From: a virus
Lineage: Duplodnaviria; Heunggongvirae; Uroviricota; Caudoviricetes
Reading direction: 5' to 3' (one strand)
IMG/VR virus record: IMGVR_UViG_2706795442_000001
Length of the DNA: 64,000 nucleotides
The notes under the pieces were generated by a model. That model made no database searches. It worked only from the letters and a program-made list of their open reading frames with translations, and was not told the origin of the DNA. Within the stretch, counting starts at the first letter, position 1; each line of letters opens with the position of its first letter. A program made the position numbers and the translations under genes. Below are positions 1,973-23,554 of this stretch, one piece after another.

Positions 1973-2986
1973 AAAATATTGTTGCCCCCTTATACAGAAA
2001 TGTATATTGCACAGTAACCAAAAACGATGAAGGCTAAGTTGACAATTTATACTTTCTATGTTATATTAATAATAGGAGGTGTAAATATGAAAAAGACGAA
2101 TGAACAATTTTTAAATGAAGTTTATAATCTTGTAAAAAATGATTATACTTTTAAAGAAAAATATAAAAATGCAAAAACTAAAATATTAGTACAACATAAT
2201 GTTTGTGGATACAACTATTACGTAAGCCCAACAAACTTTTTATCTGGAACTAGATGTCCGGCTTGTGCTAAAAATTTTAAAGACAATTCTTTGTTTTTAA
2301 AAGAGGTAGAAAAACTAGTTGGGAATGAGTACGAAGTATTAGACACGTATATAAGCAAAAGACACGAAATATCTTTTAAGCACAATACTTGTGGTACGGT
2401 ATTTAAAAAGATTCCAGAGACATTTTTAATAGGCAGACGTTGTCCAAAATGTGGATTAGAAAGACGTTCTAAAGAAAACCATTATAAGTATAATCCCAAT
2501 TTAACACAAGAAGATAGAGCAAAAAGAGATATGTTTAAAGGTAAAATAAAAAAATGGAGAAATAAAGTCTTCGCTAGAGATAATTATAAATGTAGAAAAT
2601 GCTCTAAAAAAGGAAAATTAAATGCTCATCACATTATGTCTTGGGATAAAAATATTAACGAAAGATTTGACGTAGATAATGGCGTTACCTTATGTGAAGA
2701 GTGTCATAAATCTTTTCATTCTATATACGGATATGGAGATAATAATAAAATACAGTTTTTAAACTTTTTAAATTGTCAATAAGCTAATATCGTGGTAACT
2801 ATAAATTTTAAAAGATTTATAGCACCGTAACGCATAGTTCTTGAAACTTTATCTATAAATAAAGAATAAAATAGAACCACGAGTGGTTACCAACTAAACG
2901 TATTTTGACGTAGTTGAAAATGTATGCTGAACTATATGGAAACATATAGAGCTATAGGATAAAAAGCCTTTAGGATAACAAATTTG
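1973..2986 (+). mobile_element. putative group I intron in the tape measure gene; carries an HNH endonuclease ORF
   Basis: The TMP frame is interrupted by a stop at 2015-2017 and resumes in frame after g2986. Intron positions 1978-1983 (ATTGTT) are complementary to the 3' exon start AACAAT (P10). The adjacent GCCCCC can pair with exon-1 end UGGGU (P1, with a U.G pair at the splice site). Confidence 0.45.
2087..2782 (+). CDS. HNH homing endonuclease (intron-encoded)
   Basis: RBS AGGAGGTG precedes ATG 2087. The C-terminal HNH motif reads CRKCSKKGKLNAHHIMSW…NGVTLCEECHKSFH. N-terminal Cys-rich repeats (CGY…CPAC, CGT…CPKC) are present. Confidence 0.8.
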   Translation: MKKTNEQFLNEVYNLVKNDYTFKEKYKNAKTKILVQHNVCGYNYYVSPTNFLSGTRCPACAKNFKDNSLFLKEVEKLVGNEYEVLDTYISKRHEISFKHNTCGTVFKKIPETFLIGRRCPKCGLERRSKENHYKYNPNLTQEDRAKRDMFKGKIKKWRNKVFARDNYKCRKCSKKGKLNAHHIMSWDKNINERFDVDNGVTLCEECHKSFHSIYGYGDNNKIQFLNFLNCQ

Positions 2987-5900
2987 AACAATATGGCAAC
3001 ACAAGAATCAACTCTTATGAACTTTGCTCAACGTTTAGCAGGTACAGCAACAGTCGTTGGCGTAAGTCAAAAAGACATTATGGCACTATCTGCGGCTATG
3101 GCTTCGGTTGGTATTAACGCCGAATCCGGTGGCTCTGCAATGTCTAAAGTTCTTACAAAAATGAACAATGCCGTTAAAGACGGTGGGGAGAAACTTCAAG
3201 GCTTTGCAAAAGTAGCAGGAATGTCTGGTCAAGAGTTTGCTGAGGTATGGAGAAAAGACCCATATAAAGCAGTACAACAATTTGAAGAAGGGTTAGCTAA
3301 CCAAAACAAACAAGGTAAAAACGTTAAAGCAATGCTTAAAGATTTAGGTATTACTGAATTACGTGAAACTGATACAGTATTACGTTTAGCTAACGGTAAC
3401 AAACAATTACAAACTGCTAGAGAAAATGCAAACAAAGGGTATAAAGAAGGTAACGCACTTTCTAAAGAAGCTGAAACTAAGTATAAAACTTTAGGAAATC
3501 AAATGAAAATCTTTATGAACCATGTTAGAGATTTAGGTATTTCTTTAGGTTCAGCACTTGCACCAGCATTAATTGGTATTATGAAAGTATTAACACCTTT
3601 AGTTGACGCATTAGCTAAAGCACCAACACCCGTCAAAGCATTTGTTGCAGCATTAGCGTTGATTCCAGTTATTGCAGTTCCAGTATTGGGTGTAGCGGCA
3701 GCTATCACAGGTGCTATGGGATTAGTTGGACAATCAATGTTAGTAGCAGAAAAGGCAGCAATGTCAAGTTCCAGAGGATTAAGATTCTTTGTAGCTACAC
3801 AAAAATTGATGTTTAGCCCTATTAAGACTACTACACAAATGTTACAAAATCTAGCAGCAAGTTTCAGAAGAACTGGAAAAGCTAGTAAAGTAATGGCAGC
3901 AGAAACAGTTGCATCTGAAAAGGCAGTAGAAGCGTCAAGTGTAGGAATGAGCCGAGTAGCTAGAAACTCTAACACAGCTAGTAAATCTATGCAAGGTGCA
4001 GGAGTTGCTATGGCTTCAACAGGTAAAAAAGCATCATTTACTAGTAAATTATTTGGCGGTTTGAAAAAAGTTATTGGTCCACTTATCGGAATGGGCGGAT
4101 TACTTACAGCTGCATTTGAGGCTTTAGCCGCAGTGATAGGAGCTCTTTCAGCGCCGATACTAGCAATTGTAGCCGCAGTTGCCGCAGTAGGTGTTGCATT
4201 TGTAGTTGCTTATAAGAAAGTAAAATGGTTTAGAGACGGAATCAACGGACTTGTTTATGTTCTTAAAGTTTTTGCAGGCGGAATAGTATCAAGTACAGTT
4301 AATGGAATTAAGTCTCTTGGACGTTGGTTCGGTTGGCTTGGTGGAATTGTTAAAGATAAAGCAACTTCTGCTATTAAGTCTTGGTGGAAATCTTTACCAC
4401 AAGACAGCGACATTAAACAACAAGTTAAGGCTGTTCAATCTGTAGGAAACAGTTTTAAAAACGTAATGAAAACATTAGGAACTGCTACACACAAAGCGAC
4501 GGATGTTTCAAACGTTTTAGGTAAAGGTGTTTCTAAAGGAACTAAACAAGCATTAAATAATTTCGTTGATTATTCAGAGAAATCTGATAAAATATTAGCT
4601 GAGATTAAAAATAATCACAGTAGAATAACAACAGAAGAAAAAAATAAATTATTACAAATACAACAAGATACTACTAAAGATTTAATGTCAGAGTTTGAAA
4701 AGAGAGCTAAAGGTCAATTAGATATAGAACGTAAAGTTTTCTCTCAAAATAGTGGACTTTCAGAGAAACAAGAACAAGCTATCTTACAGAGAACTGAAAA
4801 ACGTTTCAGTAAAAGTAAACAAAAATTAACGGAAATCAACAAAGAAATTCAAGAACTTGTTAATAAACAAGCAAGAGATGGCAAATTAAGCGGCAAGGAA
4901 ATGAAAAGACTTAACCAACTATACGACGAACAACGTAAGTTAGCTGTCGGAACTCTTTCTTCAACTAACAAAGAACAGAAACGTATTCTTTCAAGAATGT
5001 CAGCGAACAGAGAAGCATATAATGTTAAAGAAGCTCAATCTATAGTAAAAGAAGCTATTAAGGCAAGAGATAATGCTAAAAAAGAAAATAAAAAACGATA
5101 CGACCAAGAAGTAGACCATATTAATAGTATGACAGACTTATCTAAAACTGAAAAAGAAAAAATGTTAAAAGATGCTGATGATAGATATAGAAAAGCTAAT
5201 AAAAAAGCTGACGATAACCATAAGAAAGTTTTAGACGGCGTTAAGAAAAGCAACGAAGATATAGAAACAGAAATGGATTTATCTAACGGAAAAGTATACA
5301 GTAACGCAGAGAAATGGTGGGAAAAAACTAAGAAAGGTTTTGGCAATTTCTTTGGCGATATTGGAAAATCCTTCTCTGACATGGGTAAATCATGGAAGAA
5401 AAATTGGGATGAAATGATAAGTGATATATCTAGCGTTGATTGGTCTGGTATGTGGGACGGTATTAAAAATACCGGTTCCAATATCGGTGGTTGGTTCTCT
5501 GAAAAAGGACAAGAATTTGCTAAATCATTTAAAGGCGGTTGGGATGAAACTGTCACTAGATTAGGAGATTTATGGTCTAAATTGAAAGGGACTGGTTCAA
5601 ATCTAGGAACTTGGTTTGCTGAAAAAGGTCGACAATGGTATACTGACTTTAAAGATAGTTGGGAAACAACTAAGCAAACAGCCGGAGATTTATGGCAAGG
5701 TCTTAAAAATACTGGAACAGGTTTAGGTCAATGGTTTGGTCAAAAAGGTTCTCAATGGTATAATAATTTCAAAAACAGTTGGGAAACGACTAAACAGACT
5801 GCTGGAGACCTTTGGGCTGGTATTAAAAATACTGGTGCTGGACTAGGCGAGTGGTTTGGTAAAAAAGGCGCACAGTGGTATAATAACTTTAAAAGTCAAT

Positions 5901-19175: not shown

Positions 19176-19700
19176 ATGGCTATTATTAAAACATTTGACA
19201 AAGAAAAACAACAATGGTTAGAAGTTTTTGCTAGACCAGTTGCTGAAGAAGTAGTTAAGATAATGAAAGATGATTGGTTATCTAATAAGAAAACAATTGA
19301 CTATTGGTTATTACAATATACAGAGGGGGTAGCCGAGCCTATACAAGTTGCTATATTTACTGATGGCAATGAAGTTGATGATACGCTAAAAAGTAATTTA
19401 GAATGGGCTTTTAACGATTATATATCTGGCTTGGAAAATAAGAAATTATTTAACTTACAAGATTTTATAAATGATTGTCATAGCAGAAAAATAGATTTGC
19501 CTAAACAATTTAAAGTTAATGCCGCAGTTCAATTTGACAGTTTAGACTATCCTATTCATTTGCAAGAAATAGACAATATGACTACTAATGTTGATGTAAT
19601 AGGTATGTTAGATGAATCTTCTAAAGGTTCAATTGAAGTGAAATATATTTACAATGACCACCCTATAGAAGATAAAAAATTAGTAAAAGAAAATAAATAG
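19176..19700 (+). CDS. hypothetical protein
   Basis: RBS AAAGGAGA is present; ORF is 174 aa. Confidence 0.5.
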   Translation: MAIIKTFDKEKQQWLEVFARPVAEEVVKIMKDDWLSNKKTIDYWLLQYTEGVAEPIQVAIFTDGNEVDDTLKSNLEWAFNDYISGLENKKLFNLQDFINDCHSRKIDLPKQFKVNAAVQFDSLDYPIHLQEIDNMTTNVDVIGMLDESSKGSIEVKYIYNDHPIEDKKLVKENK

Positions 19701-19712
19701 GAGGGGTAATAT

Positions 19713-19800
19713 ATGGTGGCAACTTTAACGCATAAAGAAGCCGTAGAATATGTTAAATCATTAGAAGGAAAATATGTTGACTTTGATGGTTGGTATGGGT
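19713..19800 (+). CDS. endolysin exon 1 (start of the CHAP domain)
   Basis: RBS AGGAGGGG precedes ATG 19713. Exon ends …YVDFDGWYG followed by a single T, then hits a stop in the intron. Confidence 0.7.
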
Positions 19801-20117
19801 TAATTGGTAGCCCATGTAAAACTTTTTGAATTGCTGGAAACCCCTAACGTAAAGACGAGGGCAATCAGCAGCGAAGCTCACATGGTAACAGTGTGTGAAC
19901 GTTCAACGACTATGTACTATCAATTGATAGGCAGCGGAAAGCGTTTGACAAATATATACTCCTGTGATATAATGTTTTAATATGAAAATTTTGTCAAATA
20001 ATGATATAGTCTGGTCTCATATGAAAATATGAGGCTTTCTTTATGAAAGCTATTAAATGTTATACAATATTATATAGAAATATATAATAGGAAAGGCATT
20101 TAATAAAACAAAAAACG
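19801..20117 (+). mobile_element. group I intron (ORF-less) in the endolysin gene
   Basis: Intron 5' region reads uaAUUGGUaGCCCAUG. AUUGGU pairs with the 3' exon start ACCAAU (P10). GCCCAUG pairs with the 5' exon end UAUGGGU (P1), with U.G at the splice site. The intron ends in G. Splicing recreates DFDGWYG-Y-QCFDL, the CHAP catalytic Cys context. Confidence 0.7.
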
Positions 20118-20629
20118 ACCAATGTTTTGATTTAGCTAACAAATATTGGAATAAATTATTTGGTGGACAATTAAAAGGTCAAGGCGCAGCTGATATTCCT
20201 AATGTTAATGATTTTAGTGGAAAAGCTACTGTTTATCAAAATACAACAAGTTTCTTAGCAAAACCAGGCGACATTGTTGTATGGGGTAGAAACTTTGGTC
20301 AAGGATATGGTCATGTAGCAGTTGTTGTTGAAGCAACATTGGATTACATTGTTGTAATTGAGAATAACTGGTTAGGTGGTGGATGGACTAGTGGACCGGC
20401 ACAAGGTGGTACTGGTTGGGAAAAAGCAACTAGACGCCGTCACAATTACGAGTTTTCTATGTGGTTCATCAGACCAAAATACAAAGACGAGAAAAAAATT
20501 ACTAATTATTCTGCTAAAACTAAAACGAAAAAACCAGCTGCTAAAAAGAAAAAAGCTAAAGAAATAAAACACATTAAAGATACAGTTAACGGTTATAAAT
20601 TACCAAAACGTAACGGTAAATTAAAAGGT
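20118..20629 (+). CDS. endolysin exon 2 (CHAP domain with catalytic Cys and His)
   Basis: Motifs QCFDLANKYW … GDIVVWG … GYGHVAVV … ENNW are present. Exon end placed after GGT 20627-20629; the track ORF runs to the stop at 20638. Confidence 0.65.
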
Positions 20630-21595
20630 GTCGTGTAAAATGCCTATAAATTAATTGACTTTTTTATTTCTTTATGATATAATGACTATATATTTATATA
20701 TATAGGAGGATATTATATGAAAGAAATTTGGAAAGATGTTCCTAATTATGAAGGAAAATATCAAGTGTCTAATAAAGGAAGAGTTAAATCAATTAAAAGA
20801 ACAGTAAAACATAACGGGAGTAAAACTAGGACATTTCCAGAGAAGATTTTAAAACCAAACAAAGTGTCTTTTGATTATTTACAGGTCACATTATATAATA
20901 ATGGTAAAAGAAAATGTAGATATATACACAATTTAGTTATGGAATCTTTTATTGGTAAGAAGCCAAACGGTTATGAAGTTAACCATATAGACGAAGATAA
21001 ATCTAATAATCAATTAGAAAATTTAGAATATATAACAAGAAAAGAAAACAATAATTATGGAACTCGAATAGAACGGATGATTAAATCAAACGTTAATGGT
21101 AAAAAGAGTAAAAAAGTCAAAGGGACCCATTTAAAAACAGGAGAAATAGTTATTTTTCCATCAATATCCGAAGCGCAAAGACAAGGATATGGACCAAAAA
21201 TATCAGAAGTTTGCAATGGAAATAGAAATCATTCCGGTGGTTATAAATGGGAATTTATAAAATAGCACTGCATAGAAAGGAAACTACTATGTACTAAAAA
21301 CATAAATTGCTTAGAAGAACCTTAGAGCCTTAATGCCACAATATAGCTGAAAAGACTGTATGAAGGATTAAAAAGTTTAAGGATTGGTTTGTTTAGCATC
21401 GCTACTCCTAAGTCTTTTAGATATGGAGAACGTTCAACGACTAGACGATTGGCTCGTCGTAGGGTTTAAGTAAACTCGAAAGAAGAACTACCTAAGTATT
21501 TTATATATGGTAGAAAGATATAGTCTGGACACGCCTTTAATAGGGGTGCTAGGAATCGACCTAGAATTAGATTAACGACCTAATGAAACGTTTCG
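20630..21595 (+). mobile_element. group I intron 2 in the endolysin gene, carrying an HNH homing endonuclease
   Basis: The CHAP frame stops at 20636-20638. The amidase frame reopens after stops at 21581-21586. GUGUA at 20633-37 is complementary to the 3' exon start UACAC (P10). The intron shares the 16-nt core GAACGTTCAACGACTA with intron 1. Exact boundaries are tentative. Confidence 0.5.
20717..21265 (+). CDS. HNH homing endonuclease, I-HmuI-like (NUMOD4 + HNH_3)
   Basis: RBS TAGGAGGA is present. Motifs WKDVPNYEGKYQVSNKGRVKS and NHIDEDKSNNQLENLEYITRKEN are present. Confidence 0.8.
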   Translation: MKEIWKDVPNYEGKYQVSNKGRVKSIKRTVKHNGSKTRTFPEKILKPNKVSFDYLQVTLYNNGKRKCRYIHNLVMESFIGKKPNGYEVNHIDEDKSNNQLENLEYITRKENNNYGTRIERMIKSNVNGKKSKKVKGTHLKTGEIVIFPSISEAQRQGYGPKISEVCNGNRNHSGGYKWEFIK

Positions 21596-22438
21596 ATACA
21601 CAATGATGCCGGAAGTAAATATGCTACAGCAGAAGCTTATCGTAATGGATTAGTTAATGCTCCATTATCAAGACTTGAAGCCGGTATTGCGCATGCTTAC
21701 GGCTCCGGTAATACAATTTGGCAAGCATTAGATAAATCACAAGTAGGCTGGCACACAGCAAATCCTGTTGGTAACAACGGTTATTATGGTTATGAAGTTT
21801 GTCAATCTATGGGTGCAGATGACAAAACATTCTTAGCAAATGAACAACTAGTATTCCAAGATGCTGCTAGACTTTTAAAAGAAGAAGGACTACCAGCAAA
21901 CAGAAATACTGTTCGTCTACATTGTGAATTTGTTCGTACTTCATGTCCACATAGAAGTGCTAAACTACACACAGGATTTGACCCTGTTACTCAAGGTTTA
22001 TTACCTAAAGACAAACAGTTACAATTAAAAGATTATTTCATTAAACAAATCAGACAATATATGGATGGTAAAATACCTACTGCAACAGTTGTTAAAAGTA
22101 CAAGTGCTTCTAGTAACACTGTTAAACCAGTAGCATCTGGTTGGAAACGTAATAATTACGGCACTTATTATAAATCAGAAAATGCAACTTATAGCAATGG
22201 TAACACACCAATTATCACACGTACAGTAGGACCATTTAGAAGCTGTCCTCAAGCAGGATTGTTACCAGCTGGAGCAACTATTGTATATGATACAGTTTGT
22301 TTACAAGACTATCATGTTTGGGTAAGTTATGTAACTAACAAAGGTTACAGAGTATGGCTACCTATTAGAACATGGAATGGTGTAGCTCCTGGAAACGCAG
22401 GATATGCTGTAGGACCATTATGGGGATATATCAGCTAA
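21596..22438 (+). CDS. endolysin exon 3: amidase_2 (N-acetylmuramoyl-L-alanine amidase) plus SH3b cell-wall-binding domain
   Basis: Motifs IHNDAG…[18 protein letters not shown]…[15 protein letters not shown] are present. The SH3_5-like C-terminus reads [14 protein letters not shown]…[13 protein letters not shown]…[10 protein letters not shown]. Confidence 0.75.
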
Positions 22439-22480
22439 AATAAAAGACAGGTTTTATTCTGTATAAAAGTCGTCAACCAT

Positions 22481-22520
22481 GCGCTTTATAAGCGTTTTGT
22501 TAGGCGTACCTAACTTTTTT
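22481..22520 (+). terminator. tandem-hairpin intrinsic terminator after the lysin
   Basis: First stem GCGCTTtatAAGCG; second stem GTTAGGCGTACCTAAC; then TTTTTT. Confidence 0.6.
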
Positions 22521-22573
22521 ACCCTCTACTTTTTATGTAGGGGGGTATTTACATATTAATGGAGGTTATTATA

Positions 22574-23554
22574 ATGGAAAGAAACAATATTTATAGTGAA
22601 GAAATATATAATAAAGTAAATGATGAATCAAAAGAGCTTTTAAATGATTATATATTAGAGTTAAAGGTTCGTAACCGAGCTAAAAAAACAATTGCACAGT
22701 ATGAGTTTGATTGCAAAATGTTTATGTGTTATGTTTATGATAACATGAATAATAAATCATTACTCGATTTAAAACGTAGAGATTTTAGAAATTTCTTTTT
22801 ATTCTTAAAAGAAAGTGGTAAATCAGCAGCAAGAATTAATCGTGTTCAATCTTCAATAAGAAATCTTTTACAATTTGCAGAAGATGACGAAGAAATATAC
22901 GAAGATTATGAAGTTAATCCTATGAGAAAAATTAAATCAGTTGAGAAAGAACCTGTTAGAGAGATTGTGTTCTTAACAGATGAACAAGTTACTTATTTAA
23001 TTGATTATTTATTAGAGAAAGGTAAAACACAAAAAGCATTGTTTGTTAGTTTTGCTTATGATAGCGTAGCTCGTAGAAATGAAATATCACAAGTTCAAAA
23101 ATATAGTTTCCAAGACACAACTAAATCAAGCACTAACGAAGTTGTGGGTAAACGTGGGAAGAAATTTAAATTAATGTATTCTCAACGTACTAAAGACCTT
23201 GCTAAAGAATGGTTAGCTGAACGTGGAGAAGATAATGTTGATAGCTTGTGGATAAGTTATTATAATGGTAAACCACGTGCTATTGTATATGACACATTTT
23301 ATTCTTGGGCTATATCATTTAGAAGTATATTAGAAGAAAAATACGATGTAGATTTACCATTAAATGCTCACTCATTTCGTCATAGTGGAGCTGAAAACTA
23401 TGAAAATGGTACACATAGCTCATTACAATTTATGGGTAAAGATAGCTTAAACATAAACGAACTAAAAATATTAATGAATCATGAAAGTATTGATATTACT
23501 AATAGTTATTTAAGAAATAAAGACCAAGAAATATTGGAAAATTTATTCTCATAA
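22574..23554 (+). CDS. tyrosine recombinase / integrase family protein
   Basis: GGAGG lies 8 nt before ATG 22574. C-terminal motifs are AHSFRHSG (HxxR) and ITNSYL (catalytic Tyr). The N-terminus is SAM-like. Confidence 0.7.
   Translation: MERNNIYSEEIYNKVNDESKELLNDYILELKVRNRAKKTIAQYEFDCKMFMCYVYDNMNNKSLLDLKRRDFRNFFLFLKESGKSAARINRVQSSIRNLLQFAEDDEEIYEDYEVNPMRKIKSVEKEPVREIVFLTDEQVTYLIDYLLEKGKTQKALFVSFAYDSVARRNEISQVQKYSFQDTTKSSTNEVVGKRGKKFKLMYSQRTKDLAKEWLAERGEDNVDSLWISYYNGKPRAIVYDTFYSWAISFRSILEEKYDVDLPLNAHSFRHSGAENYENGTHSSLQFMGKDSLNINELKILMNHESIDITNSYLRNKDQEILENLFS

Follow-up and report, generated by a model that had tools for sequence, protein, structure and literature searches.

Introns in the lysin genes of staphylococcal phages are already well established. 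In phage K (Kayvirus), the CHAP-amidase-SH3b gene lysK, which is annotated as a joined coding sequence (CDS), is split by lys-I1, a group I intron with the HNH endonuclease I-KsaI. The lysin genes of the Staphylococcus aureus phages 85, X2 and Mh15 and of the S. capitis phage StB20 each contain a single intron, located between the CHAP and amidase parts. The HNH endonuclease I-HmuI of the Bacillus phage SPO1 (PDB 1U3E) is an established nicking homing endonuclease. A survey of 205 staphylococcal phages reported group I introns in the lysin genes of 20 of them, 85 and G1 among them (PMC6507118).

Here, we analyzed a 64,000-nucleotide (nt) stretch of viral DNA (record IMGVR_UViG_2706795442_000001; hereafter the window) and focused on the endolysin gene at positions 19713-22438, which lies on the plus strand, as do its exons, its introns and the signals described in and just after it. 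The window corresponds to the Staphylococcus epidermidis phage 6ec (NC_024355, Sextaecvirus), with 100% identity over positions 19600-22500, and about 30 related phages of S. epidermidis and other coagulase-negative staphylococci are 90-98% identical to this region. The 6ec gene is a further, misannotated case of an interrupted lysin gene. The 6ec record splits 19713-22438 into four unrelated CDS (gp51, gp52, gp53 and gp54), namely a 38-amino-acid (aa) 'hypothetical' protein, a 99-aa 'endolysin' from a TTG start, an HNH endonuclease and a 209-aa 'endolysin', and introns are not mentioned in the 6ec genome announcement. The survey lists the 6ec lysin as 'two genes spliced' and that of phage SEP9 as a truncated 'single gene', and in its supplementary file 35 the '6ec lysin' is a 308-aa sequence marked 'CHAP??' (PMC6507118). 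As this sequence is a plain concatenation of gp52 and gp54, the survey overlooked the first intron and the actual exon structure. We are confident that the 6ec endolysin, a protein of 482 aa with CHAP, Amidase_2 and SH3b domains, is encoded by one gene with three exons and two group I introns. The 6ec and SEP9 records and the published lysin catalogue (PMC6507118) hence carry a truncated or wrongly concatenated enzyme, and the correct three-domain product matters to anyone mining Sextaecvirus lysins as antimicrobials.

The proposed spliced lysin and its first intron

Exon 1 (19713-19800) is preceded by a GGAGG ribosome-binding site and encodes the CHAP N-terminus (MVATL…DFDGWYG) together with the opening base of a Tyr codon. 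The open reading frame (ORF) that starts at ATG 19713 encodes MVATLTHKEAVEYVKSLEGKYVDFDGWYG and then reads LIGSPCKTF into a stop codon at 19827-19829. The frame of the CHAP domain is taken up again at 20118 (…QCFDLANKYW) in exon 2 (20118-20635), which contains the catalytic Cys codon (20123-20125), the rest of the CHAP domain and a Lys-rich linker. This exon would end with …KLKGVV, its 3' end being placed by colinearity with homologues, and the frame runs into TAA at 20636-20638. Exon 3 (21596-22438) encodes Amidase_2 from IHNDAG onwards and the SH3b cell-wall-binding domain, and ends with the stop codon; its frame opens late, being preceded by a TGA at 21584-21586. An earlier note on this DNA had described the same succession of frames, with a CHAP start in 19713-19800 that runs into a stop, a resumption at 20118 and an amidase-SH3b frame that opens at about 21587, and all of these points were confirmed.

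The predicted spliced protein contains the three domains in the order expected of a CHAP-Amidase_2-SH3b endolysin (CHAP at residues 28-113, Amidase_2 at 196-321 and SH3_5 at 393-459), with the catalytic Cys in the QC motif. It is 58-67% identical to full-length intron-less lysins, and neither junction shows a gap when it is aligned with PDB entries 8H1I and 4OLS and with intron-less staphylococcal lysins. Exon 1 is colinear with the corresponding part of S-CoN_Ph10, a related phage that lacks the first intron, and of other intron-less homologues. Intron-less alleles and colinear protein alignments therefore agree with the structure of three exons and two introns that the earlier note had put forward. 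Beyond this anatomy, actual splicing, the activity of the endonuclease and the exact 5' splice site of intron 2 are inferred.

Intron 1 (19801-20117) is 317 nt long, contains no ORF and is of the group I, IA2-like type. It matches Rfam model RF00028 with 109.1 bits (E=1.9e-27; cut-off 50), positions 19791-20033 corresponding to model positions 1-253. In P1, 19794-19802 pairs with 19808-19816 and includes the conserved wobble pair U19800·G19810, which is also present in the Rfam alignment. In P10, 19803-19808 (AUUGGU) pairs with 20118-20123 (ACCAAU), and the terminal intron base is G20117. Thus, a U·G pair at the 5' splice site, a terminal G and a P10 formed with the 3' exon are all present, and the pairings drawn in the earlier note (19794-19800 with 19810-19816 for P1, and the same P10 and terminal G) agree with the Rfam alignment.

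The strongest natural comparison is S-CoN_Ph10, which lacks exactly the 317 nt of 19801-20117 in otherwise closely similar flanks (99.5% and 97% identical) and reads TGGTATGGAATGCAATGTTTT (DGWYGMQCFDL). The predicted splice in 6ec gives TGGTATGGGT|ACCAATGTTTT (DGWYGYQCFDL; the exon junction can also be written …TGGTATGGGT|ACCAATGT…). Since this junction is gap-free against solved CHAP lysins (8H1I: vdfdgaygfqcmdla) and intron-less staphylococcal lysins, intron 1 is placed two codons ahead of that for the catalytic Cys. It would fold and self-excise by the usual two transesterifications, with guanosine attacking after U19800 and exon 1 then attacking after G20117, and T+AC would be joined into a Tyr codon. 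This Tyr in the CHAP active-site context, also anticipated by the earlier note, is colinear with DGWYGMQCFDL of S-CoN_Ph10.

Intron 1 has widespread relatives, and many phages carry such introns in their polymerase and terminase genes. Its likeness to the phage IA2 introns (T4 td type; those of Twort and of Bacillus/Felix-O1-like polymerase and terminase genes) consists of the end-to-end match to the Rfam model and of core segments that are 75-90% identical; it differs from them in interrupting the active-site codon block of a CHAP domain, in lacking an ORF and in having only a promoter-like relic in P8. A homologue is located 9 nt upstream (DADG|YYHAQC) in the LysK-type lysin genes of phages OPT-SC01 and V1SC04, where it has canonical U|…G| junctions, and P1 covaries between these introns (AUGGAU/GUUCAU) and intron 1 (UAUGGGU/GCCCAUG). 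The promoter-like site (19945-19973) is a 12/12 match to the sigma-70 consensus (TTGACA-17-TATAAT with TG) and, according to the Rfam alignment, lies in the P8 loop. Only a 16-codon ORF follows it, and the site is probably a relic of a lost homing-endonuclease cassette.

The second intron and its HNH gene

The case that intron 2 is a divergent group I intron is strong, resting on core motifs, covariation and homologues. It most likely spans 20636-21595 (960 nt; alternative boundaries are 20631-21590 and 20637-21590), the HNH gene lying in a loop of its extended P1. Two 12-mers, GTTCAACGACTA (J6/7-P7) and GATATAGTCTGG (J8/7-P7'), are the same in both introns and occur in the right order, and within the window they are found only inside the two introns. 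Together with the Rfam score of intron 1, this goes well past what chance would produce. The catalytic core (P3-P9.2) occupies 21293-21595; its P7 consists of GACUA (21439-21443) paired with UAGUC (21521-21525), and its last base is G21595. In an alignment of seven sequences of the RNA that follows the ORF, 99.1% of the cells of the 78 predicted pairs are paired, and compensatory double changes affect 10 pairs versus 0-3 in slid-partner controls. Intron 2 thus has a conserved catalytic core and helices backed by covariation.

Homologues about 81% identical to this post-ORF RNA are present in the lysin genes of the S. aureus phages X2, 85 and Mh15, the S. capitis phage StB20 and S. xylosus Herelleviridae; in X2, 85, StB20 and OPT-SC01 they occupy the same place in the gene. 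The introns of 85, X2, Mh15 and StB20 share with intron 2 the HNH gene in P1, the succession of guide and P2, and an insertion target immediately ahead of IHNDAG. They differ from it in being inserted 5 nt upstream (G|TAGTTATACAC) and in being the single intron of their gene, whereas 6ec has an additional one in the CHAP part. Phages BE02, S-CoN_Ph14 and SEP9 lack the whole of intron 2 and read KLKGIVIHNDAG or FIVLHNDAG at this position, the BE02-type intron-less target sequence being AAAGGAATAGTTATACACAATGAT. An exact-pattern scan of genome contigs for a 23-mer of intron 2 yielded 0 loci, and pattern scans of viral contigs returned only X2/85-type copies and one unrelated high-GC chance match.

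The copy in OPT-SC01, which has no ORF, clarifies how P1 is built. It reads GGAAUGGUG UAAAAC GCACU GCAUAU…, and therefore the guide GCACU and the P2 hairpin directly follow the 5' splice site. In 6ec, the internal guide sequence GCACU (21265-21269) and the P2 hairpin (21270-21292) lie after the ORF, an assignment supported by a compensatory change in P1, by covariation in P2 and by minimum free energy (MFE) folds. P1 pairs the exon GGYG+U with GCRC+U, and the compensatory change is a C-G pair in X2 versus a U-A pair in StB20, 6ec and OPT-SC01. The earlier note had formed P1 of intron 2 from AGGU and GCCU, a pairing that is not conserved in the family and that is replaced here by the conserved guide after the ORF. 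The promoter-plus-HNH cassette sits in the P1 loop in 6ec, X2 and StB20. The loop is closed in 6ec by a helix of 8 bp, in which UAUAAAUU (20645-20652) in the 5' leader of the ORF pairs with AAUUUAUA (21252-21259) in its last codons; the equivalent helices are UGAAUU/AAUUCA in X2 and CAAAUCCC/GGGAAUUUG in StB20. The last codons and the stop codon of the HNH gene hence also provide the 3' side of the extended P1 and the opening base of the guide, G21265 being the final base of the stop codon.

As the earlier note had claimed, the ORF at 20717-21265 (182 aa) within intron 2 encodes an I-HmuI-like HNH homing endonuclease. The gene has a GGAGG ribosome-binding site at about 20704 and a promoter-like site at 20655-20683 (TTGACT-17-TATAAT with TG, an 11/12 match), 34 nt upstream of ATG 20717. 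Pfam matches to NUMOD4 (62.8 bits) and HNH_3 (55.5 bits) are both over their cut-offs, and the I-HmuI_NUMOD-like C-terminus is weak (19.2 bits, under the cut-off of 27); the succession of NUMOD4, HNH_3 and NUMOD-like domains is that of the I-HmuI type. Residues 5-179 match I-HmuI (PDB 1U3E) with E=1e-11, so the likeness covers the full length and the same domain order. The two proteins differ in that their sequence identity is low and that the target gene and intron of I-HmuI are others. By analogy, the 6ec protein presumably nicks DNA near the insertion site and promotes homing. Expressed from its own promoter, it would cut the lysin alleles of co-infecting relatives that lack the intron, and repair would then spread the intron. 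The presence of intron 2 varies among near-identical phages, which gives indirect support for homing.

The probable splice sites of intron 2

In our model, a late transcript would run through both introns, and the removal of intron 2 would join G20635 to A21596 immediately ahead of the amidase IHNDAG, so that the junction would read KGVV|IHND. Several observations support the 3' boundary G21595|A21596. It aligns with the end of the OPT-SC01 intron, and it leaves a tail of 12 nt after P9.2, the same as in OPT-SC01 and StB20. Exon 3 then begins with ATACACAATGAT, identical to intron-less BE02, and the frame is colinear with BE02, S-CoN_Ph14, SEP9 and PDB 4OLS. For the 5' boundary there are four in-frame options, and 20635|20636, which gives the junction KLKGVV|IHNDAG, appears the most likely of them when the homologous sequences are compared. 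The resulting exon 2-exon 3 junction is predicted to be …GGTGTCGTG|ATACACAAT…, the exon 3 side beginning with ATACAC. It keeps Val202, which is invariant in the homologue alignment, and is gap-free against the amidase structure of LysGH15 (4OLS). An intron that starts at 20636 begins with UAAAAU, to be compared with UAAAAC in OPT-SC01 and UAAAUA in X2. Of the limits of about 20630-21595 given in the earlier note, which called them less certain, the 3' boundary therefore stands and the 5' boundary would move by 6 nt.

Some of our results, and the literature, speak against this interpretation. The match of intron 2 to RF00028 (25.8 bits, E=3e-4, at 21302-21548) is a group I signal below the cut-off of 50, and a permissive-threshold Rfam search with the ORF-less OPT-SC01 homologue gave no match; by this measure, intron 2 is therefore not a member of the Rfam family, and its homologues in X2, StB20 and CF9 are likewise under the cut-off. 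At the 5' splice site, the colinear exon 2 ends in G20635, and the U that pairs with guide base G21265 is the first base of the intron (U20636), which would break the rule of a U·G pair at the splice site. MFE folding favors an upstream P1 register, with GGUGU at 20627-20631, and phage S-CoN_Ph11 retains only that register. Finally, splicing of the X2/85/Mh15-type lysin gene is stated to remain to be shown (PMC9430571), and our literature search found no report on cDNA of 6ec or of the intron-2 family.

The apparent break with the U·G rule recurs in the relatives. The colinear junctions are CGUG|UAAAAU…UUCG|AUACAC in 6ec, GGUG|UAAAAC…AAGG|AUACAC in OPT-SC01, GGCG|UAAAU…AAACG|UAGUU in X2 and GGUG|UAUAA…AAACG|UAGUU in StB20. 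If the intron ends in G, as group I introns are known to do, colinearity with intron-less genes requires that the exon end in G in all four lineages, and a splice site after the wobble U shifts the frame by +1 in X2, StB20 and OPT-SC01. The introns at three other sites of this gene family all have canonical U|…G| junctions according to the same analysis, so that the exon-ending G is not an artefact of the method. It is conceivable, although we advance it only tentatively, that the introns of the 6ec, X2/85, StB20 and OPT-SC01 types constitute a group I lineage in which the 5' splice site comes after a Watson-Crick-paired G, 1 nt upstream of the U·G wobble. If true, this family would depart from the nearly universal requirement for an exon-terminal U; it poses a testable question on the choice of the 5' splice site. 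All junctions in X2, StB20 and OPT-SC01 with U at position -1 and an intron-terminal G were also listed; they are out of frame except for one in X2 that requires a 22-nt extension, and this one fails in StB20. An exon that ends at the wobble U, combined with an intron that ends one base past the G, was rejected since it needs a terminal base other than G; it also turns the exon-like A21596 and its OPT-SC01 counterpart into a coincidence.

With canonical chemistry, exon 2 would end at U20636 and the intron at G21590, giving GTGTTTTCGATA (which contains TTTCG) at the junction 20636|21591 and a product of 484 aa with KGVV-FS-IHNDAG. This arrangement, to which we assign a minor share of the probability, makes use of the predicted wobble pair U20636·G21265 and is in frame, and the sole nearby difference between 6ec and CF9 (T/C at 21592) would be a synonymous change in a Phe codon. 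However, it inserts two residues where the homologues are colinear and places Ser at the position of the invariant Val, the corresponding junction breaks the frame in X2, StB20 and OPT-SC01, and the tail would be 7 nt versus 11-12 nt in the relatives.

Somewhat less likely again is the use of sites of the X2/StB20 type, each displaced upstream by 5 nt (20630|21591), with junction sequence GGTGTTTCGATA (the contrasting reading being GTCGTGATA) and a product with KGVS…. The AAAGGUG|U of 6ec is the same as the 5' junction of StB20, AAACG|U matches the 3' junction of X2, and this is the P1 register preferred by MFE folding and the only one left in S-CoN_Ph11. Against this, Ser would replace the invariant Val202, the intron would start with UCGUG instead of the UAAA of the family, and the tail would be short. 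Quasi-repeats of 5 nt flank intron 2 (TCGTG at 20631-20635 and TTTCG at 21591-21595), both resembling the exon sequence TCGTT; they fit the two insertion positions of the family, 5 nt apart, and leave two colinear splice solutions. The 5' junction of S-CoN_Ph11 (L006, about 1525-1550) reads GGTGTCGTTATACACAAGATGCCG followed by intron sequence, a copy of the start of exon 3 being joined at a shared ATGCC. This junction leaves the phage without one of the two possible P1 registers and may have arisen by repair or through faulty assembly.

We consider the junction favored in the earlier note, 20629|21596 (KLKG|IHNDAG) with P1 formed by AGGU and GCCU just downstream of the splice site, very improbable. 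It has a canonical U at -1, a G at the intron end and an intact frame, and a P1 of 4 bp and a P10 of 5 bp can be drawn. Nevertheless, it opens a gap of two residues, the invariant Val included, against every intron-less homologue, and no GCCU occurs in X2, StB20 or the OPT-SC01 intron that lacks an ORF. The least probable view of all is that nothing is spliced and that the region consists of four separate ORFs, i.e., fragments or a decaying gene hit by a mobile HNH cassette, with lysis by a CHAP-only product: it conforms with the separate annotation of gp51 to gp54, but it would leave exon 1 with 29 codons, the exon with the catalytic Cys without a start codon and exon 3 without an in-frame start before 21809, and the exons are intact and colinear in about 30 relatives of differing intron content, and intron 1 is a high-scoring ribozyme.

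Introns in related lysin genes

The preferred structure, with introns at 19801-20117 and 20636-21595, is one of several combinations. The lysin genes of Sextaecvirus phages contain introns at four sites: A, in the CHAP part before the QC motif; B, before IHNDAG; C, at about 21691|21692 of the window (S-CoN_Ph14); and D, at 21760|21761 (BE02 and CF9). Site D is the site of lys-I1 in phage K (WHTG|DGTG), an intron of another lineage; it is empty in 6ec. Introns are present at A and B in 6ec, at A only in SEP9, at A and D in BE02, at A, B and D in CF9 (three introns), at A and C in S-CoN_Ph14, and at B only in S-CoN_Ph10. The lysin gene is thus a hotspot for mobile introns, with four sites that each lie beside conserved or catalytic codons. 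Intron content varies between phages whose lysin exons are 97-99% identical, and such near-identical phages with differing intron sites therefore constitute a good natural system to study intron gain, loss and site shifts.

Further HNH-bearing introns are located at 2662-3553 in CF9 (L003), 1701-2592 in BE02 (L004) and 1631-2511 in S-CoN_Ph14 (L008). OPT-SC01 (L012) has introns at about 1583-1977 and 2473-2804, the second being the ORF-less homologue of intron 2. OPT-SC01 and V1SC04 (L015) are Herelleviridae of S. xylosus and S. capitis whose lysin genes are annotated as hypothetical fragments. In phage phiIPLA88 (LysH5), the expected lysin gene intron was not found and the gene is uninterrupted. 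In the S-CoN assemblies, the poly-A linker of the lysin gene contains frameshifts (…KKLLIILLKLKRKNQLLKRKS*; S-CoN_Ph10, L005 614-1141), and very many short ORFs are annotated. These frameshifts are probably homopolymer sequencing errors, and fine details in these assemblies therefore need care.

In 6ec, a terminator-like hairpin with a T-run (22499-22522) is located 3' of the lysin gene, and a tyrosine recombinase/integrase gene (22559-23554) directly follows the lysin gene in a phage group described as lytic. The same is recorded in PMC6507118, which assigns no role to the gene. The Rfam model S808 ('Staphylococcus sRNA 808') matches 21994-22248 with 212 bits, wholly within the amidase-SH3b linker of exon 3, and we rejected it as a component of the locus in its own right, the match being exon 3 coding sequence. 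The same match recurs in the lysin genes of X2, BE02, CF9 and S-CoN_Ph14, and the S808 model therefore largely describes phage-lysin coding sequence.

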